Of a stretch of DNA of 64,000 bases, positions 40,894-56,700 are shown piece by piece. The position numbers and the translations under genes are program-made. Numbering within the stretch: the stretch's first letter is position 1; each line of letters opens with the position of its first letter. The DNA comes from Sedimentisphaerales bacterium (lineage in GTDB: Bacteria; Planctomycetota; Phycisphaerae; Sedimentisphaerales; SM23-30): the NCBI GenBank assembly GCA_963666285.1, contig OY762713.1. One strand, written 5' to 3'. The notes under the pieces are model-generated. The model did not search any database. It worked only from the letters and a program-made list of their open reading frames with translations, and had not been told where the DNA came from.

Positions 40894-40956
40894 AGCCAAA
40901 TATGTTTTTTTAGGTTTTTTCTTGATATTTGTCGTCAAAGTGTAATAATACTTGGT

Positions 40957-41172
40957 GACAATTTGGTATTGTACCGTTTTAGGACATTCTATCATAAAAT
41001 CGCTAAATTAATTGTACGGAATGTCGCAAAGAACGGCACTCTCAGTTTATCTTCTGTGACAATTCAGGGGTTACTGAGGGTGCTATGCTTGTTGTGTTCC
41101 GTACAGGGTTTTAGCGAGCCTTTGATAGTTCATGACTTCATAGCGCCTTGAGTGACCTCTTTTTTTATGCGC
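40957..41172 (+). ncRNA. Structured RNA / leader element family A, copy 1
   Basis: Four nested helices, 3' tail complementary to the inner helix, U-tract; homologous to 50665-50872 with compensatory changes; TTGATA-N16-AATAAT upstream. Confidence 0.65.
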
Positions 41173-41249
41173 TATGGTTTATATTGTGAGTTAATTTATT
41201 ATTAAACAAACTGGGAAGTTGTATTTCGTAAGAAAGGATATTATTTGAG

Positions 41250-41335
41250 ACACTCAATTTTGGCTAGTGCGGTTTTGTTCATCCCTTCTGAATCCCGACC
41301 ATAACATCATAGAGCAAGATCGTACTGGCTTTTTT
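41250..41335 (+). ncRNA. Large-loop hairpin family B, copy 1 (terminator/attenuator-like)
   Basis: 18-bp stem with G-U pairs (41263-41280/41312-41329), 31-nt loop, U-tract; related copies at 51006 and 56613. Confidence 0.6.
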
Positions 41336-41482
41336 ATAATTTTTTGAAAAAAACCAATTTTTTTTCCAATATAAATTTTTTTTTGCGTATTTATTAATGG
41401 AGGTGTGTCTGGATTTCGGGAAAAGCAAAAAATACATATTGGCGAATACTAATAACCTACCATTTAAAGGAGACCAACAGAA

Positions 41483-44400
41483 ATGAAACTAAGAATCCCT
41501 GTTTGCAGCTTCGTTGTTGCATTGTCGCTACTTTTCAGTCTTCAGACCAAAGCGGATCTGATTATCCAGGCTGAAGGAACTCAACAAGTACCTGAGATAG
41601 TGGAAATTGAAAGCATAAATGATGTATCTTTTACTCTTACATCATCTGATGATGTAAAATTAGATAAAGATTTTGCAGTTATACTATCTTCAGATGAAGG
41701 GACATTTGGCCCGGATTGTGAAAAATCAATTCTTATAACTAACAAAAACATTCACAAATATAATCCAATTACTTTCCATTTCACTGGAACTGAAGGTGTT
41801 GCAATGGTTCATTTATATGCAGCACAGGAAATGGAAGTAACCTACCAAAATGAAACAATAACAGTATCGCCAATGACGGAAATCTACCAGATGGCCGTTT
41901 TTGATATGAGTTTTGACGGTGCTAAAACGATAGACCCTGAAAGAACCTATGAAGCTATTGCATTTGGCATAAATTATGACGGTATGAACTATGTTCCACC
42001 TGTCAAAAAAACTGTTGCCCCCCAAACATCATCCCTAAAGATGGCTTCAACTACATCTTTTAAAAGTAATACTGATGCTACCACACTGCCAACAAAGGAG
42101 CGTTTTGACCCTAAAAAACACAGACGTTATAATGGCGATTGGGCCAGAATGTCAAGCTATAATCCACAAGATAATAGTTTTACTAAAGGCAGTAGAATAA
42201 ATATACAATCCACTTCATTCAATGCCAGTGCAAACAATAACACAGAATTGGTTGCTACTAAAAAAACATCAGTTGCAACTATGGCAGCAAGCAAAGCAGT
42301 TTCACCTGATATTGACACAAGTAATACTAATACAATCATGGCATTAGCTACAGATATGTCTGTAAGTTCGCCAGAAGCAATCGACCCTAATGATTGTATA
42401 GTAATCAATGACAGGTATCTTTCTGAATCGACTACATGGAATCCAAACGAAACATATCTAATTAATGATCCACCGTTTATTATTTCAGATGCAAAAACTC
42501 TCAATATCCCTTCTGGAACTAATATTTATTATAAAGTGAATACTGAAGCTTGGGTGGATGTTTTCGTGGTTGAAAATGGCGGTATTCTAAGGACCGATTA
42601 TCTAGTACCAGATAATACAAGATCAGATGAGCCAGTGACTATATTGCCATTTGAAGATGGTCAAAATAGAGTTGCAATATATCTCAAACAATCAGCTTCC
42701 CCTGATTGCCAGATCAGAAATACGGTAGTTAAGGACTGTATATATGGTATTTATAACCGTACAGAATTGACAAGATACATCTCTGACAACTATATTTATA
42801 ACTGTAACTATGGTATCACCTCAGTTGGTAATAATACGATATTTAACAACCTATGTTATCAGTGCGGTGGAGCATCTAATGATAATGACGGTTGGGCTAT
42901 TGCTATGTTCCCATATTCAAATGATTATAATTTTGCCCTTTCTGATTTAGACATAGATTCAATTGAATACGGGATGTTTAATAACACCGTATATGATACC
43001 GCCGGTTTTGCTTTTTGTATCAGTGGTATAAGCAGCGACGATCAGACCGCCGGAATACCAGCACCTCAAGTACATCTTGAAAAGAATATTACTTCACATA
43101 CCGAAGACATTTCATATTATTTTGAAGGCAGCGGCACTTCCAGTGGTATTTACTGGGCTGGTTTTTCTAACGATGAATCAAATGCTACAAACTCAACTCT
43201 AGGCTTCTATTGTGCTGTTACAGACAATACTGAACTGATTACAGGTGAATATGGTGACTGGAATTTATATTTAGACCCTCAATCTGATTTTATACATCAG
43301 GTTAAGTTAAATGACTATCTAAATGTTATCCATTCAGTAAAAACAAATTTTGAAAACATCTATTCTTCTTCTGTAACCTTCGACGACACTCCTGTAAGAG
43401 ATGGAGCGATAGGCAAGCATAACTTTACTACCTTTACTGGAACAGTGAAAGCACTGCAATGTGATATAGCTCCTGAAACTCCTGATGGCGTTGTTAATCA
43501 ACTAGACCTTGACTTGTTAAACAGCGTATTTTCTCAAACAGTACCAGTTCACACTGAAATAGACTATGAATTGCTAGACCCAAATGCTGTCTGTAACTTC
43601 AACGACAGTGACTATATTATCGATTTACTTGATTTTTCATTATTGGCAGCGCGTTGGGAAACTTCTACCAACGGCATAACCGACCCGAACGAATTACGAT
43701 ATGATATGGATAATGACCAGTGGGTTGGTATAAGTGATCTTTCTCAGTTTGCTTCATATTTCTGCTATGAAATACCAACCATTTCCTATATAGAAGATGG
43801 TGCTGATCCTAATGTAATTAAAGCTGATGTCAACGGTGACTATGTTGTAGATGATCTGGACCGTAACTTACTACTCGCTGAAATGGAAAGCGTTCAGATA
43901 GTTCCTGATGTTCCGACAATTGTTACAAGCTTCAGAGGTATATCTGAAGAGCCAAACTATCCTGATGAGCTATTTAGTTGGAATAATATTAAAGGTGATG
44001 TTGAAGTAGCAATAGAACCTATTGAGGATATTGATAAAGTTGAAGTATTTATCCACAGAAACCGTATTGGCTTGATTTTCTTTGACGGTGTAGATGATTT
44101 TAATAAGTTCCAAATATATTCACAGGACTATAAGCCTGGCACTTATGACGTTGTATTCAATCTGCACCATCCAGACGGTGCTATTTCAGTTGTAAGGCAG
44201 CCTATTACCTTTACAAATAACAATTTACATTCTGTAAATATTCCAACTCTATTAGATGAAGATATATATAGAATACAATTCAGTAATGGTACTGAAAACA
44301 CTCGATTAACCGTTACTAATACCAAAACAGATCAAGTACTGCATAATGCCGTCTATACAGGTAATGAAGTTGAAGTAGTATTTGATCCTAATGTGCCTGG

Positions 44401-45391
44401 TTTTGATAATGTGGAGTTCTCACTTGAAGCTCTGCCTGCTGTAACCACAAGCAGCACAATTGTCCCATTATCAGTAAGTCAAGGTGAATACAAAGACCCG
44501 GACACAACCAAAAATACCAAAAAGAAAAAGAAAAAACGCAAAAAAAAGAAAGGTGAAGCTGATGATGATGAATTTAAGTTGTTGATCTCAATACCTGATG
44601 AAAGTATGGAAAGATTTGTTGATGACATTATCGAATTTATTATCGATGCCTGCTATTCAGATGAAGACCACGAGGAAGAAAACTGCGTTGTTCCTTATGT
44701 AATATATGATGGTGTTGAATTTAACTGGAATGATTTTAGTAAACGTATTGAAAAAAATAGCCATTTCAAATACTGGATTAATTTCTCACATGGGAACTAT
44801 GATGAAGAACGTGGGTTGACTTATACTGTAATATGGAAGAATATACCCGGAACTGATAAATGTTATCCAACAAGGCTATATTCTTTCTCATACCAAACCA
44901 ATTCCATTATAGAAACATTGGAAGCACAAAAATATTGCTATATGTCTGACTTGAATATTAGGAATGAGGATAAACTTAAATTTGTTTACAATTTTGCCTG
45001 TAAATCAGGTAAAACCCTATTCCAGTATGGAAATTATTATAATGATTTTGCTGATGCGTGTGGCATGTATTCAACTTATTACAATCATTATCAGGCATAT
45101 ATAGGCTTCCATGACAATTTTGTTGCATACGATGGGATTGGAGATTATATTGAACTGTTGACAAGAGCTGAAGAATTTCATAAAAAGTTCTTTAAAAACC
45201 TTAAACTGAGGGTGCATCTTGAATCTGTAATCGGCCTGACAATGGGTTCTTGCGGTAAAGCTGTAATAGAGCTTATTCAAGGTTATGATGCAGAATGGGA
45301 TGTTCCATATAGCAAAACAAAAGACCCTATTTATCAGGATAGTTTAAGAATATACCCTTGGACTGATTTGAATAGAATACATTTTCAATAA
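41483..45391 (+). CDS. Large secreted protein: beta-helix, dockerin/EF-hand-like repeats, C-terminal putative clan CD (caspase/gingipain-fold) peptidase
   Basis: Signal peptide; IDLLDFSLLAARW and ADVNGDYVVD repeats; WINFSHG and FVYNFACKSG His/Cys motifs. Confidence 0.65.
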   Translation: MKLRIPVCSFVVALSLLFSLQTKADLIIQAEGTQQVPEIVEIESINDVSFTLTSSDDVKLDKDFAVILSSDEGTFGPDCEKSILITNKNIHKYNPITFHFTGTEGVAMVHLYAAQEMEVTYQNETITVSPMTEIYQMAVFDMSFDGAKTIDPERTYEAIAFGINYDGMNYVPPVKKTVAPQTSSLKMASTTSFKSNTDATTLPTKERFDPKKHRRYNGDWARMSSYNPQDNSFTKGSRINIQSTSFNASANNNTELVATKKTSVATMAASKAVSPDIDTSNTNTIMALATDMSVSSPEAIDPNDCIVINDRYLSESTTWNPNETYLINDPPFIISDAKTLNIPSGTNIYYKVNTEAWVDVFVVENGGILRTDYLVPDNTRSDEPVTILPFEDGQNRVAIYLKQSASPDCQIRNTVVKDCIYGIYNRTELTRYISDNYIYNCNYGITSVGNNTIFNNLCYQCGGASNDNDGWAIAMFPYSNDYNFALSDLDIDSIEYGMFNNTVYDTAGFAFCISGISSDDQTAGIPAPQVHLEKNITSHTEDISYYFEGSGTSSGIYWAGFSNDESNATNSTLGFYCAVTDNTELITGEYGDWNLYLDPQSDFIHQVKLNDYLNVIHSVKTNFENIYSSSVTFDDTPVRDGAIGKHNFTTFTGTVKALQCDIAPETPDGVVNQLDLDLLNSVFSQTVPVHTEIDYELLDPNAVCNFNDSDYIIDLLDFSLLAARWETSTNGITDPNELRYDMDNDQWVGISDLSQFASYFCYEIPTISYIEDGADPNVIKADVNGDYVVDDLDRNLLLAEMESVQIVPDVPTIVTSFRGISEEPNYPDELFSWNNIKGDVEVAIEPIEDIDKVEVFIHRNRIGLIFFDGVDDFNKFQIYSQDYKPGTYDVVFNLHHPDGAISVVRQPITFTNNNLHSVNIPTLLDEDIYRIQFSNGTENTRLTVTNTKTDQVLHNAVYTGNEVEVVFDPNVPGFDNVEFSLEALPAVTTSSTIVPLSVSQGEYKDPDTTKNTKKKKKKRKKKKGEADDDEFKLLISIPDESMERFVDDIIEFIIDACYSDEDHEEENCVVPYVIYDGVEFNWNDFSKRIEKNSHFKYWINFSHGNYDEERGLTYTVIWKNIPGTDKCYPTRLYSFSYQTNSIIETLEAQKYCYMSDLNIRNEDKLKFVYNFACKSGKTLFQYGNYYNDFADACGMYSTYYNHYQAYIGFHDNFVAYDGIGDYIELLTRAEEFHKKFFKNLKLRVHLESVIGLTMGSCGKAVIELIQGYDAEWDVPYSKTKDPIYQDSLRIYPWTDLNRIHFQ

Positions 45392-45419
45392 CATATATCT
45401 TGTTTTGGAGTAATAAGTT

Positions 45420-46226
45420 ATGAAAAGCATTTATGTTTTAATTATTGCTGTTACACTAGCTCTGTTGGTTGGTTTCGGCTTTGGTTATAGCTCTCGCAGT
45501 ACAGAGAGTAAAGAAACCAACCAATACCTAAGTGAACTAGAAAATATGCAAAAAAAGGCAGAATTTTCAGGGCAATTTGAGGCTAAAAAAGTTGATTTTG
45601 AACAAGTTACATTACCAGAATTAGAAAATGGTGTAATTTACTATTCAGAAAAAAACGAACTCTATCCTCTATATATAGATTATTGGATTGGTTGCGGATG
45701 GGAAAATAATATTACAGGTGAAGTACATGACCTGATTAAGATTTTTCCTGTATCAGCCACACTGTATGTAAAAGATAAAACATTACAGTCTTCTACATAT
45801 CAGCCTTTGTATTCCAAAATAAGAATATTTCAGGATATGGATTTAATCAAATCTATTGTTAATAAACTTGAAAGCCCTGGTATTTATTATAACCCAGCGG
45901 ATTATGAAAGTTGGAAACAAGATAGGAAAAACCTTATCAGAGAGGATAAATTGTCCAAAGATAAGAAAAACATCTTGAATCAATTAGCTGATCGTGAGAA
46001 TCTACTCATTCTTGACTACGGTTATAAAAGAGTAGCTGTATCATATATTACTCAAGAAGTTTATGACAAAGCTTCTGAAAAAACAGATATTGACGTTATT
46101 TCTTATAAAGGCCGATCAAATGAATTATATGATTTGCTAAATAATAGTAAATATGGAAAGTCCCCTAGAGTTTTATGGACAAGAAAGGCTCCAGAAGGTA
46201 TGCCAAAGTACCATTTTAATGAATAA
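45420..46226 (+). CDS. Membrane-anchored/exported hypothetical protein, paralog 1
   Basis: N-terminal TM helix; similar throughout to 46329-47111 (YSKxxIFQDM, SPGxYYxP, LDYGY, VSYITQExYDKAS). Confidence 0.75.
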   Translation: MKSIYVLIIAVTLALLVGFGFGYSSRSTESKETNQYLSELENMQKKAEFSGQFEAKKVDFEQVTLPELENGVIYYSEKNELYPLYIDYWIGCGWENNITGEVHDLIKIFPVSATLYVKDKTLQSSTYQPLYSKIRIFQDMDLIKSIVNKLESPGIYYNPADYESWKQDRKNLIREDKLSKDKKNILNQLADRENLLILDYGYKRVAVSYITQEVYDKASEKTDIDVISYKGRSNELYDLLNNSKYGKSPRVLWTRKAPEGMPKYHFNE

Positions 46227-46255
46227 TAATGTCATTATTCTAAAATTGTAATTTA

Positions 46256-46302
46256 TCCCGATTCTGATTTAATTGTTAAATGAATTAGAATCGGGATTTT
46301 TT
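46256..46302 (+). terminator. Intrinsic terminator
   Basis: ATCCCGATTCT...AGAATCGGGAT followed by T-run. Confidence 0.6.
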
Positions 46303-46328
46303 AATAAGCTACTTTCTTCGGATTATTT

Positions 46329-47111
46329 ATGAAAAACAAAAATATAATAATAACTATTACAATAGCAATATTGATTAGTTTTGGCTTGGGTTATCTCTCT
46401 CGCAATACCGAGAGTGAAGAAACTAGACAATTCTGTAAAGAATTGAAAGAAATGGACAATTATGCGGAATTTCCCGGCCAGTTTGAAATCAAAACATGTA
46501 GCGTTGGCCACCTAGAACTCCAAGAATTAGAAAGAGATACAATAGTTTACTTTGAAAGAGATAAATTTTTCCCTTTACCAGTTTATTATTGGGTTGGAGG
46601 TGGTTGGCAAATAGTAACTAATAATGGTGCTTGTGGGCTTACTCATGTTTACCCTATATCTATTACTATATTCAAAAAAGATGAAGTATCACAGTCACCA
46701 AAATTTGAAGAAACGTATTCTAAAGTAAAAATATTTCAGGATATGAATCAAATCAAGGAGATTGTGAAAATTCTTGATAGCCCTGGTATGTATTATGATC
46801 CAGAGGAATATGAGAGTTGGGAAAAAGAAAGAAAAGACCTTATTAGAAGTTCTGATCTTCCAGAAAACGACTCAAACATATTATCTCAACTATCAAAACA
46901 CAATAACCTGATGGTACTTGATTATGGTTATAGACAAATAGCAGTATCATATATCACTCAAGAAGCTTATGATAAAGCCTCTGGAAAAACAGGAATAGAC
47001 TTTTTATCTTATAGTGGAATATCTAATGAGTTATACGACTTGTTAAACAAATACGGCGGAAGCCCTAATATATTGTGGGATAGGGTATATAAACCTGAAC
47101 CACGCCGTTAA
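46329..47111 (+). CDS. Membrane-anchored/exported hypothetical protein, paralog 2
   Basis: Paralog of 45420-46226. Confidence 0.75.
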   Translation: MKNKNIIITITIAILISFGLGYLSRNTESEETRQFCKELKEMDNYAEFPGQFEIKTCSVGHLELQELERDTIVYFERDKFFPLPVYYWVGGGWQIVTNNGACGLTHVYPISITIFKKDEVSQSPKFEETYSKVKIFQDMNQIKEIVKILDSPGMYYDPEEYESWEKERKDLIRSSDLPENDSNILSQLSKHNNLMVLDYGYRQIAVSYITQEAYDKASGKTGIDFLSYSGISNELYDLLNKYGGSPNILWDRVYKPEPRR

Positions 47112-47123
47112 GCTTATTTACTC

Positions 47124-47159
47124 AACTAATACCACCGCAACCGGTGGTATTAGTTTTTT
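47124..47159 (+). terminator. Intrinsic terminator between convergent genes
   Basis: AACTAATACCACCG-CAAC-CGGTGGTATTAGTT plus T-run. Confidence 0.75.
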
Positions 47160-47176
47160 ATATGAATAAATAATAC

Positions 47177-47204
47177 ATGTCTCATAAGGACGATTATGTT
47201 TCAT
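47177..47204 (+). other. dif/Xer-like recombination site 1
   Basis: ATGTCTCATAA-GGACGA-TTATGTTTCAT (11-6-11; compare E. coli dif GGTGCGCATAA-TGTATA-TTATGTTAAAT). Confidence 0.65.
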
Positions 47205-47219
47205 TGACTGAACTATAAC

Positions 47220-47561
47220 CTATTTTTGATTTCTTGAACGACTTTTTTTATCTGGAATAATAACACTACTCCAGTTTTTATCTGAATATTGCTCTAATAA
47301 ATCATTATCAAAGATTTTTATGGTTAGATGGTAATATTCTTTGAAATCTAATAATAGCCAGGTAGAAGCAATTTGCTCAGTGAAACATATAGAAGCATCT
47401 CTATTTTCTTTTGAACCAGAAATGATTTTTACTAATTTTATATACTTGTCGTATCTATCATTTTTAAGCTGTTTATTTCGACTGTCAACCCACTTAATAA
47501 AAGCAAAAATACCAGCAACAATAGGTAGCAAATAACTTAGGTTTTTCAAAATATCTTGCAT
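47220..47561 (-). CDS. Small membrane protein, sole gene between two dif-like sites
   Basis: N-terminal TM helix LSYLLPIVAGIFAFIKW; very AT-rich. Confidence 0.6.
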   Translation of the reverse strand: MQDILKNLSYLLPIVAGIFAFIKWVDSRNKQLKNDRYDKYIKLVKIISGSKENRDASICFTEQIASTWLLLDFKEYYHLTIKIFDNDLLEQYSDKNWSSVIIPDKKSRSRNQK

Positions 47562-47603
47562 AGCTTGTCTTTTCCGTTTTGTGTTGAATTCTAGGCTAAC
47601 GTC

Positions 47604-47631
47604 CAGTCTTATAAGAGCGCTTATGTTTCAT
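47604..47631 (+). other. dif/Xer-like recombination site 2
   Basis: CAGTCTTATAA-GAGCGC-TTATGTTTCAT; contains the stop codon of 47621-48088. Confidence 0.65.
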
Positions 47632-48088
47632 TGCGTATAAAAATTTTTACACTTAGCCAATCTCCATCTGTGACACCTAAATGAGTTCGTAATTTAATAT
47701 CAGCGTATAATTCAACAGTTCGTTTGAGTGGTTTTTTAGCTGCTATACGTAATATAGCTCCATAACTTGCGTTTTGACCTTGTACGGCACATTTGAAATA
47801 ATTATAACCACCCCGTATAAAATGGATTTCGTAGTCAGGATATTCATCTGGTATAGATATAGTATTGGGATCTTCATACCAAAATGCAGGGATTGTTTTT
47901 AATTGTTCTACAATTTCCGGATTTACTGCCAAATTTAAAGTACCTAACTCAAGCTTATCCCATCCACCTATTTCCATTAGTTTATTTTGTCGGTTAGGAT
48001 TTACTTTAATGATCTCTGACTCACTAATCGCTAATAACCCAGTTTTACCCCTACTTCTTGGATTTACCTGACCAGAAAAAAGCATCAT
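47621..48088 (-). CDS. CTP-dependent riboflavin kinase-like (DUF120) domain protein
   Basis: FSGQV N-terminus, GTLNL motif, VELYADIKLRTHLGVTDGDWLSVKI C-terminus. Confidence 0.65.
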   Translation of the reverse strand: MMLFSGQVNPRSRGKTGLLAISESEIIKVNPNRQNKLMEIGGWDKLELGTLNLAVNPEIVEQLKTIPAFWYEDPNTISIPDEYPDYEIHFIRGGYNYFKCAVQGQNASYGAILRIAAKKPLKRTVELYADIKLRTHLGVTDGDWLSVKIFIRNET

Positions 48089-48105
48089 TCACCTCCATCA
48101 TTCAA

Positions 48106-48975
48106 TCAATCATCTTTAGAAAATGTATGATTATGGTAGCTACAATATTCATGATACTCAATTCTAAATGTATTATTCCCACAATTAGGACATTGCTCTT
48201 CTCGATCACTTCCATCTGCCAGAACAGATGAAATATGTCCACTATCATCAATGTCATGTATTTCACCATCTTCGCAGTAAAAAATACAATGCCAGCATTT
48301 TTCACAATAAGCATCAAACATTGCCCTTGCGCCACAGATGCACTCTCCGTAAGTATCATCATCTGGGATTTCAATAACTTTTTCTATCCTTTTAGCCCAA
48401 AACACTCCACCAATTGGCACTTCTGGATACTTCTCTTTTATCATATCTCTACAAACAGTAAAATGACTTCCAGATGTTATTAGATCATCGATTATTACCA
48501 CAGTAGAAGTTAGATGTGTAAATCCATTCCACTTCAAACCTTGTCTAATGCTCTGATAATCCCGTGGACCACCTAAATGGGAAGGTTCTTTATTAATAGT
48601 TCTAACTATTGGTTTTTGAATATTTATATTTGGACAAGTTTTTTTTAATAAGTCCAACGTCTGTTCAAACCTATCATCATATTCCGCTGCATCGTGAGCG
48701 TAAGAGGGAGGAATAAATATTACTGTGTTATCCGTAAAATCAAGGTAATTTAGCTCTTGAGCGAATTTTTTTATTGCTTCTCCCTTATAATACCATTCTT
48801 GTTTGCATCTTTTCTCATGATCCTTCTTGAAGTTATGAATTAAACTGTTAGTTTCTGAATCTTGATATGAACCGCCAGCTATATATTCACGCGCATACCA
48901 ACAGTCGTCATTAACATTCAAACATGACGGAAACCCATGCTCTGTTCGCTCAATTTTTTTCCAGTTTAGTGTCAT
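48106..48975 (-). CDS. Phosphoribosyltransferase-like (ComFC/ShosT-like) protein with Cys-rich C-terminal extension
   Basis: SLIHNFKK, FIPPS, VVIIDDLITSGSHF PRPP loop; CICG, CEKC, CPNC at C-terminus. Confidence 0.8.
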   Translation of the reverse strand: MTLNWKKIERTEHGFPSCLNVNDDCWYAREYIAGGSYQDSETNSLIHNFKKDHEKRCKQEWYYKGEAIKKFAQELNYLDFTDNTVIFIPPSYAHDAAEYDDRFEQTLDLLKKTCPNINIQKPIVRTINKEPSHLGGPRDYQSIRQGLKWNGFTHLTSTVVIIDDLITSGSHFTVCRDMIKEKYPEVPIGGVFWAKRIEKVIEIPDDDTYGECICGARAMFDAYCEKCWHCIFYCEDGEIHDIDDSGHISSVLADGSDREEQCPNCGNNTFRIEYHEYCSYHNHTFSKDD

Positions 48976-49885
48976 TTGAACCCAATTCAGAAAGAATATC
49001 ATTTAAATCTTTAACTCTAAAAGCACCTTTTTCTTCATACATTTTAGGCCAGGTTATATTTCGATTATCAAAACAGGAATTAAGTATAAATAACTTTCTT
49101 CCTTGTCGCAGACACTCTCTGGCTTGAGTCAATGTTCCACTCTTCTCTGAAGCTTCAACAATAACAGTAGCTTCAGATATTGCAGACATAGTTGCATTTC
49201 GTGCCGGAAAATAGTTTCTTTTAGACTGAAACGGCTGATGTTCATAATAATAAAATGGAACCTGGCTAATCAGCAAATGATGCTTAGCTATTTCATTTTG
49301 AAGTTTGATATTTTCTTTTGGATAATATTGATTTATAGGTGTACCAATAACTCCAATTGTCTTGCCTTTATATTGAATTGCTGCTTCCAATGCAGCAGTA
49401 TCAACACCTAAAGCTAAACCAGAAACTATCGTAAAACCATTATCAACTAATCCGCACGCTAATTTAGCTGCTCTTCTTTTCCCTTCTTCTGAACAACTCC
49501 TGGCCCCAACAATTGAGATACAGCGACTTTCAAGTAATCCAATATCACCCTTATAATAAAAAAGTGGTATTGGGTTTGAGGCATCTTTAAGCCTTTCTGG
49601 ATATTGAAATGATCCTTTTACGCATACAGAAAAATCATCTTGATTATCTTCAAATTGTTTCTTAAAGAATTCATCTACTCTTTCCCAATAGTTTGAAGTT
49701 TCACCCTCAAAGAATGTTCTTCCGTGATTTTCAAGATGAAAGAACACTCTTGAAGGCAGAGATTCGTTATATTCTCGAAATAGTTCTGCTATCTTTTTAT
49801 ATGATGCTTTCTCCATATCACATAATGCTTCGTAGTAACACATCTCTTGATAAGGAGATATTGCATTTGAAAATTGCAATTCCAT
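48950..49885 (-). CDS. dprA: DprA/Smf-family protein (ShosA-like)
   Basis: YPERL...FYYKGD, SIVGAR, IVSGLALGVDTAA, FPARNATMSAIS, VEASEKSGTLTQA. Confidence 0.9.
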   Translation of the reverse strand: MELQFSNAISPYQEMCYYEALCDMEKASYKKIAELFREYNESLPSRVFFHLENHGRTFFEGETSNYWERVDEFFKKQFEDNQDDFSVCVKGSFQYPERLKDASNPIPLFYYKGDIGLLESRCISIVGARSCSEEGKRRAAKLACGLVDNGFTIVSGLALGVDTAALEAAIQYKGKTIGVIGTPINQYYPKENIKLQNEIAKHHLLISQVPFYYYEHQPFQSKRNYFPARNATMSAISEATVIVEASEKSGTLTQARECLRQGRKLFILNSCFDNRNITWPKMYEEKGAFRVKDLNDILSELGSNDTKLEKN

Positions 49886-50074
49886 TCTGTTTCAACCTTT
49901 TCTTATTGCCTTAAAAGTCTTATATAAATTCTACTCAATCTATATAATTCTATATAATAACCGGGTAGGTAGTCAACAACCATATATATCCATAGGATTA
50001 TCGACATTTCTGTCAAATTTCATGCAATTATCACATAAGTGATTTAATTACAATACGTTAATCAAAGATTAGCA

Positions 50075-50359
50075 CTAAAATATAGGAAAATCTCTCCATA
50101 ATCTCTTTGTCACCTCTTTATAGTCAAGTTCAAGAACTATCAAATATCCAGAGTAGTTATCCATATTTTTAGGTGTATTACCATCCACTTTTTCATACAT
50201 TAGCGTTCCATGCTCTGTAGTTACCATTTTGGATATGGTTTCTGCTTTTTCACAAAATTGCTGGTAAACCCAGTTAATTGCCTGTTTTGAGCTTTTAAAG
50301 CCATCTTTTTGCTCTGTTACTAATCCATTTTCTAATACTTGTACGATGTAATTATCCAT
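50075..50359 (-). CDS. Hypothetical protein
   Basis: 94-aa ORF with AAGGAG RBS. Confidence 0.55.
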   Translation of the reverse strand: MDNYIVQVLENGLVTEQKDGFKSSKQAINWVYQQFCEKAETISKMVTTEHGTLMYEKVDGNTPKNMDNYSGYLIVLELDYKEVTKRLWRDFPIF

Positions 50360-50524
50360 TATTATCTCCTTTATTTACAGGAAGTTAATTTAATAATTAT
50401 ATATTCGATCTTCTGTACCAAAAATCCTTTATTATTTTTTTAAAAAACAATACCAATAACGCCCTATAACAAAACTTATGCTCAAACCTTTTCATAAGTC
50501 ATTATAAAACAGGGTATTTACGTT

Positions 50525-50552
50525 AGGTCCGATAATGGACATTATGTTACAT
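50525..50552 (+). other. dif/Xer-like recombination site 3 (closest to canonical dif)
   Basis: AGGTCCGATAA-TGGACA-TTATGTTACAT; right arm differs from E. coli XerD arm at one base; intergenic. Confidence 0.75.
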
Positions 50553-50664
50553 TAGGCCAAATTCACCGGCAGGGCGGTCGGAAAAAACATCAAATATTGA
50601 ACTCAAATCATAATTTTAATAAAAACTATTGAAAATACAACAACTGTTAGTCATAATAGATTTT

Positions 50665-50872
50665 GACAATTTGAGACCGTTTTGGACGTATCCAGTGAAA
50701 TACCGCTAATTTTTTATTGAATAGATGCGTTGGTAACGGCACTCTCAGGAACCTTCACAAACATTATGCAGAGGTGACTGAGGGTGCTATGCTATGTGTT
50801 CTATTCTGGCTTTAGCGGGCCTTCACTGGGCATATAGGCGTAGCGCCCTCTGGAACCTCTGTTTTTTTGCGC
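50665..50872 (+). ncRNA. Structured RNA / leader element family A, copy 2
   Basis: Same nested helices as 40957-41172; TTGAAA-N17-CATAAT promoter 7 nt before the shared GACAATTTG. Confidence 0.65.
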
Positions 50873-51005: not shown

Positions 51006-51077
51006 TCAATTTTGGCAAGCACGATCTCGCCAAATCTCCCAGAACATAACAATAGGTGGGATCGTGCTGGCTTTTTA
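51006..51077 (+). ncRNA. Large-loop hairpin family B, copy 2
   Basis: TCAATTTTGGC leader, stem GCAAGCACGATCTCGCC/GGTGGGATCGTGCTGGC, loop with CATAACA, T-run. Confidence 0.55.
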
Positions 51078-51339
51078 TTTTTTTGCTTGCTACGAGTTAT
51101 CAGTATTTGGTATTATTGACACTGGTTGGATTGCCTGATGCCAGCACATTTAAAGTGCGTAACTATTTTTTCCTCTATTAATAACAGGTAATTCAGAAGG
51201 TAAGAGTGAATTTGAAAAAAGGATTTTTGACACTATTTGACAAAGGATTAAAAACTATGCTCAAACGGCATGGGACGGCACTGCTGTCTCTCCCCTGCCA
51301 AAATACAACAACTGAATATAAGATCAACACTGATCTTTT

Positions 51340-51482
51340 GACACTTTCACTGAAACCGGCAAGTTTATTAAAGAGGTGTAAAAAAGACAGTACCCGATAT
51401 GGGTACTGCTTTGCGCAACCTCTTTGGGTTCCTTGCCGGATACCTCAGTGAAATGCGTGGGTAGTGCCCATTTTTTATGGGC
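51340..51482 (+). ncRNA. Family A-like structured leader (sequence-divergent third member)
   Basis: Nested pairs TTTCACTGA/TCAGTGAAA, CCGGCAAG/CTTGCCGG, AAAGAGGT/ACCTCTTT, CAGTACCC/GGGTACTG; tail GTAGTGCCCA + T6. Confidence 0.6.
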
Positions 51483-51568
51483 ATAAGCAGGAAGATATAA
51501 AAATGGGATAAATCGGGATAACGTATTCCGAAAATAATATTACTTCCTTTTTTGAAAGGAGAGCTTTT

Positions 51569-54500
51569 ATGAAATTGGTACGATTATTGGTTCTTTTATT
51601 TACTATGGTATCGTGTGTGTGGGCAGGCGAACTCCCAGTTCAAATTGCTTCGACAACACCAATAGTAGCAACAGCGAATAGCTCATCAAACACAAACATA
51701 CCGTCTAATGCAAAAATATTAGTGTATGATTGCGGCGATAGCTCTATTCAAAGAGCACTCGGTATATTAGGTTTGTCATACGATGTAATAGAAGCAAATC
51801 AATCAGTTACAGAATATGACTTAGCTAGCCATGACATATTGATAGTTGGCTGGGACAGTAGCGATCCAAGTGATACAAACGGTCTTTCACCTTCTGTTAT
51901 AGAAAAAGGAATTACTGGCCGCATTATTTTAACTGGTCATGATACAGATTGGCATACTGCAAATGACGAAAACGCAAATGACCAACAAGCAGCTCAAACT
52001 TTTCTGACACAATGTATAGAATATATTTTGGACGGTGCAGGAACCGGATTGTTAGCTCATGGAGAAATGCATGATGGGTTTGAATGGCTCCCGGAAGAAT
52101 GGGGAATCACTCCACAATGTGAAATTGCAGAAGAACATGTTGAATCATTCACAACTGAAGGTATTAACAGTGGTATTTTTGAAGGCCTCGACACAGACGA
52201 TATGTCAAATTGGGGCCAATCTTTCCACAATTACTTTGAAAGTTGGGGGCGTGGATTTGAACCTTTTGAACTTGGACGTAGTAATGGTACAGATGTGATA
52301 ACAATTGGCACGCCATTTAATGCTTACGGTTTCAGATTTACTAAAGAAGACGATGTTGATGATGGTAGTTGTGTAACCCCTATTGACGGTGGTGACACCG
52401 ATATTGTATATACTATCTGCTGGAAGAACATAACAGGCCAGACCTTGACAGATGTGCGAATTGTGGACACATTACCTGCTGGTGTTGATTACCCTGCCGG
52501 ATGGGATAGTGTAGATGTGGTAGATGGAGAGATTGTTGTAACTCCTGGCGACCCACTCTACTCGAAATCAGAACATACATATACATGGGAAATAGGAACA
52601 GTCGATCCAGTTGAAGAAGACCCGAACAGTATTGATGAAGACTGGTCTTGTGTAACACTTGAAGTTGTCGTAAATGAAAATGCAATTCCTGGAATGATGC
52701 TGCATAATGAAGCTGTAATAATAGGAACATATTGCGTTGAGACACCTGATCCGAATGACCCAAATACAATGATAACTACCTGCTATGAGAAAGAATTTGC
52801 TATTGCAACAGAAGATACACCTGTATGTTGTTGGGACGATTCAAGCGTGATTTATGTTTCAGAAAATGCTACAGGGGCAAATACGGGATTGAACTGGACT
52901 GACGCATATAACACCGAATACGGACTGAAAATGGCTCTTGACCGGGCTATAGACTCAACATGTGGTGGCCCATTCACTATTTATGTAGCACAAGGAACAT
53001 ATCTGCCGGGAACAGATGTTTCTGAATATTTTGATTTGCCGGATGATATAGAAGTTTATGGCGGTTTCCCAACTAAAGGCTGTGACTTTGCCGATAGAAA
53101 TCCTAAGATGTATGAATCAATATTAAGTGGAAACATAAGCGCATATGACTCATCATTCACGGTAGTCGAAATGGGCCTAGACAGTACGCTTGATGGTGTA
53201 ACAATTTCAGACGGATATGATTACAATGTTCATGGCTATCAATTTACTGTTAAAAACTGTATTATTGAAAATGCAGTGAATTATGGTATTTATGCAGAAG
53301 ATGGTAATGCTACAATTAAATCTTGTATGATTAGAAATAATGGTGCAGACGGAGTTTACCATGAAAGTATCGCGGGTAACTTAGATGTGTCCAACTCATG
53401 GGTTATGAGAAACAATAGGCACGGTATCGAATGTGTTTACTCTACTCCAAAAGTTGTCAGTTCAATTGTAAGTGAAAGCGATCTATCTAATGAAGGTCGT
53501 GCAGGTATATATATTAAAAACCCTGCCTCAACTCCTATTATACACAATGTCACTATCGCAAATAACAGGTCTCTCGGCCTGCATTTTGAAGATCTGGCGG
53601 TAATAGAAGATCCGAATGACCCAAATAACTTTACTATGGACTACCCAAATTTGGATAGTTGCATTATTTTCTACAATAATAAGGATGAAAATGAATCTTA
53701 CGGCAGTCAGCTAAGCGGAGTAACTGTGAATAGTGTTGCTTCATATTGTTGTATTCAGGGCTGTGATGCAGGAGTAAATAATAACATCAGTGCTGTTCCT
53801 GATTTTGCTTATGAAGTTAACTCTGCGGGTGAACCTGACCCGGAAAATTATCACATTTCTGCGGCTTCAATTTGCAAGAATGCTGGAAATCCAAACCTTG
53901 TCTATACAGACCAGACAGATTATGATAATGAAAGCCGTATTGCAGATGATGGCGTGAGAATTGTTGATATTGGAGCTGATGAAGTATATTCGTGCAGTGG
54001 AGATTACACCGAAGAAGATATTTCCAATCCATTAGATACTAATGCTGATGGTGTGATTAATATGATAGAATTTCAGCCGATAGCTAGTAGTTGGCTGAGC
54101 CTTGACCCTAATGACCCTAGATGGGACAGTGATCCAAACTGGGCCGATCCTGACGACACTCTTAACTGGGATGGAAAGGCGAATTTGGATGACACTGGTG
54201 ATAGTCTGCATATTATTGATCTGGCTGACCTTGAGTTATTCTGTGAAAACTGGCTCTGGAAAGCGTGCTGGTATGACGCTGCTAATTCGGTAGAAACCAC
54301 AACCGCATCTACAGAATCAATGACACTGCTTTCAACAAATACGACAGGAATAGCAAGCTTTGCGAGAACAACTTCAACACTAATGCTGGCTGAAGATACG
54401 ACAGAGGAAGAGCGTAATTTATACGATACCCTGTCGAATGCTGAACTTGCTCAAGTTGTTATAGATTTCCGATATTTACAGGAAAATGTACTGGAAATGC

Positions 54501-54601
54501 TGGAGGAATGCCCAGTTGACAGTGAAGATGAGCAAAATTTACTGGATTTGCTGGTATTTTTCGATGATGAACTAGTCAGAATTAAAGAATCTTTGCAATA
54601 A
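51569..54601 (+). CDS. Large secreted/surface protein: DUF11-like domain, right-handed beta-helix, dockerin-like C-terminus
   Basis: Signal peptide; IVYTICWKN...IVDTLPAGV; IYVAQGTYLP; VDIGADEV; DTNADGVINMIEF and IIDLADLELFCENWL; DPNDPN motifs. Confidence 0.75.
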   Translation: MKLVRLLVLLFTMVSCVWAGELPVQIASTTPIVATANSSSNTNIPSNAKILVYDCGDSSIQRALGILGLSYDVIEANQSVTEYDLASHDILIVGWDSSDPSDTNGLSPSVIEKGITGRIILTGHDTDWHTANDENANDQQAAQTFLTQCIEYILDGAGTGLLAHGEMHDGFEWLPEEWGITPQCEIAEEHVESFTTEGINSGIFEGLDTDDMSNWGQSFHNYFESWGRGFEPFELGRSNGTDVITIGTPFNAYGFRFTKEDDVDDGSCVTPIDGGDTDIVYTICWKNITGQTLTDVRIVDTLPAGVDYPAGWDSVDVVDGEIVVTPGDPLYSKSEHTYTWEIGTVDPVEEDPNSIDEDWSCVTLEVVVNENAIPGMMLHNEAVIIGTYCVETPDPNDPNTMITTCYEKEFAIATEDTPVCCWDDSSVIYVSENATGANTGLNWTDAYNTEYGLKMALDRAIDSTCGGPFTIYVAQGTYLPGTDVSEYFDLPDDIEVYGGFPTKGCDFADRNPKMYESILSGNISAYDSSFTVVEMGLDSTLDGVTISDGYDYNVHGYQFTVKNCIIENAVNYGIYAEDGNATIKSCMIRNNGADGVYHESIAGNLDVSNSWVMRNNRHGIECVYSTPKVVSSIVSESDLSNEGRAGIYIKNPASTPIIHNVTIANNRSLGLHFEDLAVIEDPNDPNNFTMDYPNLDSCIIFYNNKDENESYGSQLSGVTVNSVASYCCIQGCDAGVNNNISAVPDFAYEVNSAGEPDPENYHISAASICKNAGNPNLVYTDQTDYDNESRIADDGVRIVDIGADEVYSCSGDYTEEDISNPLDTNADGVINMIEFQPIASSWLSLDPNDPRWDSDPNWADPDDTLNWDGKANLDDTGDSLHIIDLADLELFCENWLWKACWYDAANSVETTTASTESMTLLSTNTTGIASFARTTSTLMLAEDTTEEERNLYDTLSNAELAQVVIDFRYLQENVLEMLEECPVDSEDEQNLLDLLVFFDDELVRIKESLQ

Positions 54602-54622
54602 ATTATGCAATAACCATTGAAA

Positions 54623-54664
54623 CTGCCTGCCGTTATTTGATATAATGACGGCAGGTAAGTTTTT
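54623..54664 (+). terminator. Intrinsic terminator-like hairpin
   Basis: CTGCCTGCCGTTAT...ATGACGGCAGGTA followed by T-run. Confidence 0.55.
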
Positions 54665-54691
54665 ATTTCATAAAGGTTACAGGAGAGAAAT

Positions 54692-55321
54692 ATGAAAAAT
54701 ATTATGATGTTATTACTGTTGGTCTGTGGTTCACAATGCTTTTCAGCTATTACTGATCCCAGTAGCGTTGCAACTGACGGCTTCTTGAATAAGGGTGAAT
54801 ATGGTGGGCATGTCAAAGTAACAGAAGATAGCGTTTTAACTGTTAATGGCGGCGGGGCCAGTGATATTGATCTTTTTGACTCAGCCTCTTTAACCGTTAA
54901 ATCTACTTCCGAACCTTATGTTGATTTTGAAAGTGGAATATCTTGGATAGTCCCTAGTGACAATAGTAATGTAACTGTTTCTGGCGGTGTTATTAATTAT
55001 ATTTATGTCCAAAAAAATGCTTCAGCATGGATAGATGGTGGCCAGGTAAACTATATTAGAAGTATCCAAAAACCTGATCTTGGAAAAACTATTACTATTG
55101 ACTGTGAAAAAGATACCTGGTCATGGATTGGTGAAGAAGATAATTACACCGGCATAACAGGTACTTGGCATAATGGTGATGATTTTACAATTACATTTCT
55201 AAACGATACAATTCAAAACAAATTCCCAGATACATGGACACACGTTCGAGTTATACCAGAGCCAGCATCAATGATACTGCTTGGACTTGGTGGTCTCTTC
55301 CTGAAGAAAAGAAGAATATAA
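54692..55321 (+). CDS. PEP-CTERM sorting-domain protein 1
   Basis: Signal peptide; IPEPASMILLGLGGLFLKKRR. Confidence 0.9.
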   Translation: MKNIMMLLLLVCGSQCFSAITDPSSVATDGFLNKGEYGGHVKVTEDSVLTVNGGGASDIDLFDSASLTVKSTSEPYVDFESGISWIVPSDNSNVTVSGGVINYIYVQKNASAWIDGGQVNYIRSIQKPDLGKTITIDCEKDTWSWIGEEDNYTGITGTWHNGDDFTITFLNDTIQNKFPDTWTHVRVIPEPASMILLGLGGLFLKKRRI

Positions 55322-55349
55322 ATATTTTCATATTTTACAGGAGAGAAAT

Positions 55350-55979
55350 ATGAAAAATATTATGATGTTATTACTGTTGATCTGTGGTTCACAATGCTTT
55401 TCAGCTATTACCGATCCCAGTAGTGTTGCAACTGACGGCTTCTTGAATAAGGGTGAATATGGGGGACATGTCAAAGTAACAGAAGACAGCGTTTTAACTG
55501 TTAATGGCGGCGGGGCAAGTGATATTGATCTTTTTGACTCTTCCTCTTTAACAGTTCTATCAACTTCAGAACCTTATGTTGACTTTGAAAGTGGAATATC
55601 TTGGATCGTTCCTAATGATTATAGTTCCGTTACAGTTTCTGGTGGTGTCGTTAATTACATTTATGTTGGCGAAAATGCTACAGTTTGGCTCGATGGCGGA
55701 CAGATAAACCTAATTAGAAGCCTTCAAAAACCCAGTCTTGGAAAAACTATTACCATCGACTGTAAAAAAGATAGCTGGTCATGGATTGGAGAGGAAGATA
55801 ATTACACCGGCATAACAGGTACTTGGCATAATGGTGAAGATTTTACAATAACATTTTTAAACGATACAATTTTATATGCTTTTCCAGACACATGGACACA
55901 CGTTCAAGTCATACCAGAACCGGCATCAATGCTGCTTCTTGGTCTTGGTGGCATGTTCCTGAGGAAAAGAAAAGTTTAA
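55350..55979 (+). CDS. PEP-CTERM sorting-domain protein 2 (recent duplicate of protein 1)
   Basis: Same length, near-identical N-terminal half; IPEPASMLLLGLGGMFLRKRK. Confidence 0.9.
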   Translation: MKNIMMLLLLICGSQCFSAITDPSSVATDGFLNKGEYGGHVKVTEDSVLTVNGGGASDIDLFDSSSLTVLSTSEPYVDFESGISWIVPNDYSSVTVSGGVVNYIYVGENATVWLDGGQINLIRSLQKPSLGKTITIDCKKDSWSWIGEEDNYTGITGTWHNGEDFTITFLNDTILYAFPDTWTHVQVIPEPASMLLLGLGGMFLRKRKV

Positions 55980-56006
55980 CTCATATATATTTGAAAAGGA
56001 GAATTT

Positions 56007-56567
56007 ATGAAAAAACTGATACTAATACTATGCTTGTGTTCGTCACTATGGGCCGGAAGCTTTGACTATGTTATTAATGAAGGATATTACAGCGACCCAA
56101 TATTGCTTGAAAATCAATCCCTTCAAATAACTGGAGGTGAAATTGCACGAGTTAATACTAGAAACAATAGCTTAACAGAAATGACAGGTGGACAAATAGA
56201 TAGTATCAATTTTAATCCTGGCAACAATGCTTTTAATATGTCTGACGGTTATGTAAAAAATCTTATTATTAACGGTTCTTGTTTAGCAACGCTAGAAGGC
56301 GGAACAATAGATAAGATTGAATTGATAAATATGACTAATGTTTCAATAACATTCATTTGCGACATTGACAGTGTATATAAAGAATATAACGAATATGGAA
56401 TACTAACAAATGTTTCAGGCAACTGGCTTGACGGAAGTGAATTTAATACACAGTTATCATTTTTTAACGATGAAAGTCTTATTCATTTTGTACCAGAACC
56501 AGCATCAATGCTGCTTCTTGGGCTTGGTGGTATGTTACTGAAGAAAAGAAAATTGACTAGACTATAA
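56007..56567 (+). CDS. PEP-CTERM sorting-domain protein 3
   Basis: Signal peptide; VPEPASMLLLGLGGMLLKKRK. Confidence 0.9.
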   Translation: MKKLILILCLCSSLWAGSFDYVINEGYYSDPILLENQSLQITGGEIARVNTRNNSLTEMTGGQIDSINFNPGNNAFNMSDGYVKNLIINGSCLATLEGGTIDKIELINMTNVSITFICDIDSVYKEYNEYGILTNVSGNWLDGSEFNTQLSFFNDESLIHFVPEPASMLLLGLGGMLLKKRKLTRL

Positions 56568-56612: not shown

Positions 56613-56700
56613 ACACTCAATTTTGGCTAGTGTGGTTTTGCTTTTTCCCTTCTGAATCCCGACCATAACATCATAAGGGCAAGATCACGCTAGCTTTTTT
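56613..56700 (+). ncRNA. Large-loop hairpin family B, copy 3
   Basis: Close direct repeat of 41250-41335: identical loop core TCCCTTCTGAATCCCGACCATAACATCATA, compensated stem. Confidence 0.6.

Follow-up and report, generated by a model that had tools for sequence, protein, structure and literature searches.

A repeated RNA element with two predicted competing folds, a probable transcription attenuator in leaders of acquired genes from several bacterial phyla

The window analysed here, 64,000 nucleotides (nt) of contig OY762713.1 from a Sedimentisphaerales bacterium (assembly GCA_963666285.1), carries several copies of a structured RNA element, and the question this locus raises is what kind of RNA it is and whether it controls the genes behind it. 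An earlier note on the window had taken two copies, a (at 40957) and b (at 50665), for an RNA switch, an attenuator or a small RNA. We found the element across phages and genomes of several bacterial phyla. Our preferred reading, to which we give a probability of about 0.68, is that it sits in the 5' leader of genes acquired by horizontal transfer and attenuates their transcription in cis, a reading favoured by the strand shared between two folds, the leader position and the polarity of the element.

One shared strand and two folds

The element is 170–210 nt long and comes in a long and a short type. From 5' to 3' it consists of a 5' motif; strand a; a left segment (P1, AAA, a kissing strand and P3); strand a', which enters the 5' strand of P4; the 3' strand of P4; a right segment (P3, a short stem with a 6-nt loop, and P1); a tail; and a T tract. 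In fold I these parts form a rod, P1-P2-P3-P4, in which the terminator is hidden. In fold II a 5' hairpin (a/a') sequesters the start of P4, and the tail pairs with the 3' strand of P4 to give a terminator hairpin at the T tract; the P2 strands then sit in the loops of both hairpins, and a kiss of 6–7 bases between these small loops bridges the two folds. The element thereby has a mutually exclusive terminator and antiterminator that share one strand, with a U tract behind, as is the case in an attenuator. The right-hand stem has 5 base pairs (bp), its 6-nt loop being complementary to a loop in the 5' hairpin, and its sequence varies with pairing kept (GGGC/GCCC, CCCC/GGGG, GGCA/TGCC, ACGC/GCGT).

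Covariation, measured in two non-overlapping alignments of 18 long and 25 short copies, backs both folds, and the claim of a structured RNA with a built-in alternative terminator stands. In the rod 90% and 97% of alignment cells are paired, with two-sided change in 17/37 and 27/33 pairs; the two-hairpin form has 88.5% and 95.9% of cells paired and two-sided change in 31/60 and 22/37 pairs, where all totals count the kissing helix and one alignment's two-hairpin total counts parts of P1 and P3 as well. Neither the paired fraction nor the covariation score was reached by any of 500 shuffles, and slid controls gave 36–49%. One helix of the 5' hairpin is out of register in one alignment (46% paired), the same region reaching 98% and 88% in the other. 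Helix 2 (P2), described before as the same in both copies, is indeed so in a and b, but it is not constant across the family, with two-sided change in 5/7 pairs among the 18 copies and in 6/7 among the 25 others. G-U pairs are frequent, which argues for RNA rather than DNA structure.

The cores of P1 and P3 are among the most variable parts of the element (majority letter 0.53–0.68 vs 0.83–0.94 in P2 and P4), and in 18/18 copies the best partner of the left segment is the right segment of the same copy, by a margin of ~16 kcal/mol. A U-turn motif (YUNR) was present in the right-hand loop of 31 of the 42 model-found copies that could be parsed (44 examined), and the U-turn loop of many copies reads TTGGCG, the same hexamer as in the leader of plasmid ColIb-P9. 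Of the unpaired positions, the AA(A) ahead of the left loop and the U within the U-turn are the only ones that appear fixed, and both are partly built into the searches.

Copies a and b both begin GACAATTTG, 7 nt behind a -10-like hexamer (AATAAT ending at 40949 and CATAAT ending at 50657) with a TTGA-type -35 box upstream (TTGATA with a 16-nt spacer and TTGAAA with a 17-nt spacer), as had been reported, and the four nested helices and the tail complementary to the 3' arm of the innermost helix are likewise present in both. The mutually exclusive 3' fold was also recovered, but its description was incomplete, as the alternative fold includes a 5' hairpin too and both loops are made of the helix-2 strands. 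The two copies are 71% identical (blastn E 9e-8 in the 6.35-Mb assembly), with fold z-scores of -5.1 (a) and -7.2 (b) and no equally good fold among 200 shuffles. The leader with copy b also contains a third homologue (51307-51476), of the short type and absent from the earlier note. No variant or joint is listed inside copy a or b in contigs from three public DNA runs, among which the source sample possibly is. The features are as follows.

40922..40949, + strand: predicted sigma-70-like promoter of copy a (sequence match, TTGATA-16-AATAAT)
40957..41166, + strand: copy a, long type; rod -68.7, terminator fold -66.5 kcal/mol; 5' motif 40957-40968; 5'-hairpin strand ~40974-40990; P1 40989-40994 with 41123-41128; kissing strands 41000-41006 and 41111-41117; P3 41013-41021 with 41097-41105; antiterminator P4 41035-41045 with 41074-41084; tail 41139-41159; T7 41160-41166
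41262..41336, + strand: family B hairpin immediately 3' of copy a (19-bp stem, 31-nt loop, T tract)
41483..45391, + strand: first gene behind copy a, 1302 amino acids (aa), signal-peptide-like start, no Pfam family
50629..50657, + strand: predicted sigma-70-like promoter of copy b (sequence match, TTGAAA-17-CATAAT)
50665..50868, + strand: copy b, long type; terminator fold -83.6, rod -71.8 kcal/mol; P1 50692-50699 with 50822-50829; kissing strands 50703-50709 and 50812-50818; P3 50719-50725 with 50800-50806; P4 50738-50748 with 50778-50788; tail ~50838-50861; T7 50862-50868
51013..51076, + strand: divergent family B hairpin behind copy b
51087..51116, + strand: second promoter-like site, 5' of the short copy (predicted, TTGCTA-18-TATTAT)
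51206..51451, + strand: 81-codon open frame with an AGAAGG site in front; crosses the short copy and stops in the 3' strand of P1
51307..51476, + strand: third copy, short type; rod -68.5, terminator fold -49.9 kcal/mol; 5' motif 51307-51318; kissing strands 51356-51362 and 51433-51439; P4 from 51388; tail 51462-51469; T tract
51569..56567, + strand: downstream operon, a 1010-aa beta-helix protein and three PEP-CTERM genes

A conserved long-stem element lies between the second promoter and the short copy (51122-51203; also at G000:C1 near 1003760 and 2106950); it ends in the AGAAGG site of the upstream open frame, and its fold is no better than that of shuffles. Some 45 nt 5' of a start codon (~51513-51535) we noted a palindrome, TCGGGAT..ATTCCGA, which also precedes related cassette genes without the RNA element and is possibly an operator or part of a promoter.

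For counts across the family we used a set of 86 copies, found by a scanner that required P1, P2 and AA/GG/CC flanks and did not pick up either reported copy. When the chain was folded in growing prefixes, the 5' hairpin was followed by P4 and then by the rod in all three copies of the window, and the rod formed after P1 in 85/86 scanned copies. In the complete chain the two folds are almost in balance for copy a, while copy b favours the terminator and the short copy favours the rod. The terminator is the minimum-energy fold in 8/86 copies when unconstrained and in 63/86 when the left or right kissing segment is blocked, and the pairing of the tail beats all 40 shuffled tails in 80/86 copies.

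The 5' motif RACAATTRAATA is found 39–60 nt before the left loop in 66/86 copies (9.1 expected), and in 21 of these 66 a promoter-like site ends 5–12 nt ahead of it. Promoter-like sites upstream of the element occur in 33/85 copies across the family vs 11.2 expected, while in the AT-rich regions of the window they are not above chance (3 vs 2.2 and 4 vs 3.9 expected). Leaders of the host rRNA read TTCTTTGACAATTAAACA, and the 5' 12-mer of the element equals the 3' part of this boxA-spacer signal; the element differs in mostly having no 5' UUCUUU and in that a switch and a terminator follow the signal. A complete boxA is not a family feature, as the positions before the 12-mer are not conserved across the 66 copies and are near-complete in a minority. 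TCTTT together with the 5' motif is present in the host's two 16S leaders and in further leaders, once ahead of a Cas4-like gene (named by eye). The E. coli rrn spacer acaauuua is bound by NusA, with the UU required, according to a passage in PMC2724277, and boxA proper loads NusB-S10, according to one in PMC13753749. The host encodes NusB and two NusG-family matches, and the 5' motif may by analogy be a site for NusA that lacks the NusB half. Away from rRNA operons, complete boxA-like sites were noted at G000:C1 near 1320876, 3246263, 3851032, 3960231, 5906903 and 6150243; one of them precedes a Cas4-like and one a PrmC-like gene (both named by eye).

Distribution of the family and the genes behind it

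In the host assembly a profile of the two copies led to four further ones, and a broader profile to 12 in total (six long, six short). By BLAST the long type is restricted to the genus (4/41 genomes); relatives with the element are labelled Sedimentisphaerales or Phycisphaerae. The covariance-model search that the earlier note had called for did find the family beyond the window, in the order, the class and a second phylum. Model R1 matched 13/25 genomes of the family, 65/151 of the order and 3/151 of the phylum; model R2, built from 25 short copies, matched 24/151 genomes of the class, 30/121 of the second phylum (that of the Victivallis record) and 4/101 in the family of the Crocinitomix record (Bacteroidota). 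A pattern scan of genomes yielded 73 loci, of which 11 were dropped as duplicates; the other 62 and one viral locus were inspected and 50/63 judged real by eye. It adds records labelled Pirellulales, Planctomycetales, Kiritimatiellae, Verrucomicrobia, Syntrophaceae and Myxococcales, among which single records are possibly mis-binned. The remaining 13 loci were discarded as chance by eye, and none of the six of these given to model R2 scored; neither did L127 and L170, which had been judged real.

The element occurs on three viral contigs, in two of them close to terminase- or portal-like genes that run on the other strand, in the third as a tandem pair ahead of a PEP-CTERM-type cassette. Two long-type patterns had no matches on viral contigs and core patterns gave 1 and 3 loci; locus L175 of the viral scan was not confirmed. 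A metagenome scan gave 3 loci, 1 of which was confirmed. The window itself takes up most of a contig of 65.6 kb, which together with two related small contigs accompanies one of 6.15 Mb. Its genes for a portal, an adaptor and an integrase, a 5491-aa helicase/methyltransferase gene and PEP-CTERM genes make it read as a temperate phage with host-type cargo. Two further observations concern this contig: 23-nt tandem repeats at 920-1034 within the first gene, whose product has several helix-turn-helix (HTH) matches, and 1135 nt of the giant gene (27669-28803) that are 95.5% identical to contig C2, with 64-82% in the remainder of both elements, possibly a recent exchange.

In the genus 16/18 copies precede a gene of at least 900 aa with a signal-peptide-like start, directly or (in one case) after two PEP-CTERM genes; PEP-CTERM genes lie alongside most of these copies, and two contigs end early. 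Elsewhere the downstream set is heterogeneous and includes PEP-CTERM and other secreted proteins, KAP NTPases, type I and Eco57I-type restriction-modification systems, an EcoRI-type methylase, RadC, nucleases, kinases, LuxR-type regulators and a 55-aa membrane protein. For 84 copies with sufficient flank we carried out a census of the context, in which downstream genes were picked automatically and a few picks are wrong. A same-strand gene with a ribosome site is found behind the element in 72/84 copies, and in 12/84 it is the opposite strand that carries the longest downstream frame. The start codon lies within 60 nt, with no promoter-like site between, in 20 copies, and within 150 nt in 18. 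We regard the leader position as clear in 20 copies, likely in ~9 more and indirect in 34; it is indirect also for copies a and b of the window. In distant lineages the gene often begins 10-60 nt behind the element.

Tandem pairs of copies are common, and a promoter-like site accompanies each. Two loci of genome G020 (L056:5664-11400 and L063:5700-9600) carry a tandemly repeated unit that consists of two RNA copies, a PEP-CTERM gene and a large gene, the large genes being truncated at the same peptide end (172, 383 and 384 aa) and full only in the last unit, which suggests repeated partial duplication. Behind the long copy at L042/L068 (G003) just the 3' half of a short copy is present. At L187, L188, L190, L192 and L196 a short gene begins 10-15 nt behind the element, just past the T tract, the product at L188 being a LuxR-type HTH protein, and at L077, L078, L086, L091 and L168 a conserved 55-aa protein with two hydrophobic stretches and no Pfam family follows directly behind a long-loop subtype.

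The family B hairpin (41262-41336, 51013-51076 and 56625-56700 in the window) has 13 copies in assembly G000, several of them directly behind PEP-CTERM operons. Its stems vary with compensation, and the 31-nt loop is nearly invariant in 12/13 copies and complementary to the motifs TCAGAAGG and GTCGGGAT in cassette leaders. As an antisense to the element or to leaders the loop reached p < 0.05 in only 3/21 whole-loop duplex tests; the hairpin is a candidate small RNA.

Attenuation in cis and the alternatives to it

As an attenuator the element would work in the following way. The RNA would start at or just before RACAAUURAAUA, where NusA may bind. The 5' hairpin, which covaries, is predicted to form first and to hold the 5' strand of P4. 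The right half then emerges as the 5-bp stem with the 6-nt loop, usually a YUNR U-turn, that is complementary to the loop of the 5' hairpin. A timely kiss is predicted to extend the pairing to P1 and P3, open the 5' hairpin and free P4, and also to hide the toehold of the tail, so that transcription would continue. Were the kiss slow or blocked, the tail would displace P4, the terminator would form before the U tract and an RNA of 170–210 nt would be released. The downstream genes are too mixed for a pathway metabolite as input, and a small-molecule ligand seems somewhat less likely than a race between folds whose outcome depends on how fast elongation proceeds, on pauses or on a bound protein, for example NusA. 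A leader peptide was rejected as a general input, as an open frame crosses the switch in 11/85 copies (18.9 expected); such a frame crosses 4/5 of the short copies examined in this assembly, which does not extend to the family at large.

Several points weigh against attenuation in cis. The gene lies more than 150 nt away in 34/84 copies, 28 of these with a promoter or -10-like site between, and by the test used 12/84 copies have no downstream gene. The large secreted-protein genes reported behind copies a and b are there, but 311 and 697 nt off; both copies are followed by the family B terminator-like hairpin with its T tract, so that read-through alone would not reach the gene, and behind copy b a promoter-like site also intervenes. 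In this assembly 5/9 related large genes have no copy upstream. The requirements of the scanner (P1, P2 and flanks) are built into the 86-copy set, and the copies are related, so that counts overstate their independence. The rod is favoured by ~10 kcal/mol on average and termination therefore needs the kiss to be blocked or slowed; smaller blocks give the terminator in 24/86 copies (P2 only) and in 31/86 (P1 and P2; 37/86 in another run). The ViennaRNA folds are equilibrium folds free of pseudoknots, with the kiss and kinetics outside the model, and thus show the switch to be possible, not to be used. Of the options named before, switch or attenuator on the one hand and small RNA on the other, an attenuator fits the family better, with 20/84 direct leaders, but copies a and b are the less direct cases.

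These two copies are best fitted by a stand-alone small RNA that travels with cargo cassettes and insulates them, its kissed form being functional and P4 a mere folding intermediate. They end ahead of another hairpin, the best fold of copy b is the terminator form, and with a hairpin and a promoter behind them they may act as stand-alone RNAs. Predicted promoters and terminators of its own, promoter-like sites that downstream genes often have for themselves and copies with no gene behind also fit this explanation. For the family as a whole we consider it unlikely, since in 20/84 copies the next start codon is too near for a promoter to fit in between, opposite-strand frames are the longest in 12/84 only, and P4 and the terminator use one strand and both covary. 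In addition, no target was found, the pairings of the family B loop and of tandem copies being not significant.

Slightly less probable still is self-regulation in trans, similar to P4 immunity or IsrK, in which the terminated RNA or a processed half would bind the loop of a new transcript, block its kiss and enforce termination; expression from an element that has just arrived would come as a burst before being silenced, with specificity per copy. U-turn loops are typical of sense-antisense recognition, a precedent exists (PMC4825925), and methyltransferase or restriction genes are often downstream. The variable P1 and P3 cores, the preference for self-pairing in 18/18 copies and the lack of a shared kissing 7-mer in any of 8 parsed tandem pairs are also as expected. 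However, minus-strand promoters of the sigma-70 type are not enriched (10/84 vs 11.7 and 1/86 vs 2.1 expected), no separate half-copy was found in this assembly, and an intramolecular kiss should beat one in trans. Orthogonality is no greater within genomes than between them (16.3 vs 15.7 kcal/mol), and we dropped the idea of selection for it within genomes. Tandem partners cross-pair at half the self energy (p ~0.09 vs non-partners, 8/19 regions parsed), which is not significant, and regulation of a downstream copy by the upstream one was likewise dropped.

A DNA-level mobile or recombination element, symmetric through folding of single-stranded DNA, would account for the many copies scattered over unrelated positions on phages and islands, with integrases and resolvases nearby, but is very improbable given the fixed polarity (promoter, T tract), the abundant G-U pairs, the U-turn loop and copies only ~70% alike, and given that three DNA runs list neither a joint nor an inversion at the elements.

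Relation to known RNAs and meaning

That the element belongs to no known family was borne out by cmscan: Rfam 15 at the gathering threshold gave 0 matches in the window, tRNAs only in 14 loci and none in 18 family and candidate loci (P1 and P4 controls gave C4, c4-a1b1 and isrK), and E-value scans returned weak matches far below threshold. A motif resembling a c-di-GMP one near the element in G008 was rejected as without Rfam support. The literature searched holds no description of this RNA, although unexamined survey supplements might contain an overlapping candidate. None was found in the parts of three motif-discovery surveys compared by term (PMC2864571, PMC11109978, PMC5737381), where PMC11109978 has no PVC terms and the main text of PMC5737381 no term match. 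In the 8 supplements of PMC8040213 that were compared, two short element motifs are absent and Lentisphaerae candidates have 33-55 nt.

The likeness to P4 CI and P1 C4 RNA drawn in the earlier note holds as an analogy, but no match exists to C4, c4-a1b1 or isrK (RF01695, RF03163, RF01394), nor of our models to P1 or P4. A short GC stem with a UUGGCA-type loop is common to c4-a1b1 and the element; a separate antisense cloverleaf has no counterpart here, and icd, ant or kil lie downstream there whereas surface, defence and regulator genes do here. In these systems mobile elements carry leader RNAs whose short loops are complementary and whose transcription ends prematurely (PMC4825925).

The loop kiss of CopA-CopT and IncI and the guanidine-IV riboswitch come closer as analogies, and the element resembles a guanidine-IV-type kiss over a terminator built from CopA/Inc-type loops. 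In CopA-CopT the kissing extends into the flanking helices to give a four-way junction, and in ColIb-P9 the TTGGCG loop and CGCCA pair as a pseudoknot. A U-turn recognition loop on a short stem is shared with CopA-CopT, and the TTGGCG loop with a downstream CGCCA of the ColIb-P9 Inc/repZ leader recalls the many copies with this hexamer, although model R2 does not match that leader. The plasmid systems use two RNAs with translation of a Rep protein as output; here both partners are in one RNA, no antisense promoter was found and the predicted output is termination. In the attenuators of pT181 and pIP501 one strand pairs with an upstream segment or with the tail, and an antisense RNA from the opposite strand is needed. 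The three-segment logic is as here, while nothing indicates such an antisense RNA. For CopT of plasmid R1 a passage in PMC10798244 describes a YUNR U-turn hairpin loop that initiates pairing, and for the guanidine-IV riboswitch one in PMC11611296 a 5'-hairpin loop that kisses the terminator loop and promotes read-through. Compared with that riboswitch the element is longer, has three kissing-linked helices, an anti-antiterminator and variable loops, no Rfam match, and downstream genes unrelated to guanidine export.

The element is apparently undescribed, broad and, as modelled, structurally well supported. New widespread cis-regulatory RNA families with such covariation are rare, and this one occurs in poorly studied phyla. 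Tentatively, it could be a multi-phylum class of RNA switches that places a plasmid-style kiss within one leader and couples it to a strand-displacement terminator. It would then be a movable gate for the cargo of phages and for defence islands, one that either senses a signal at the kissing junction or is closed by the terminated RNA that it yields, with loop codes specific to each copy. As the helices change freely and each copy pairs best with itself, the family would, if this is true, be a natural set of orthogonal strand-displacement switches, and newly acquired genes for surface proteins, restriction-modification, KAP NTPases and regulators would be under RNA-only control.

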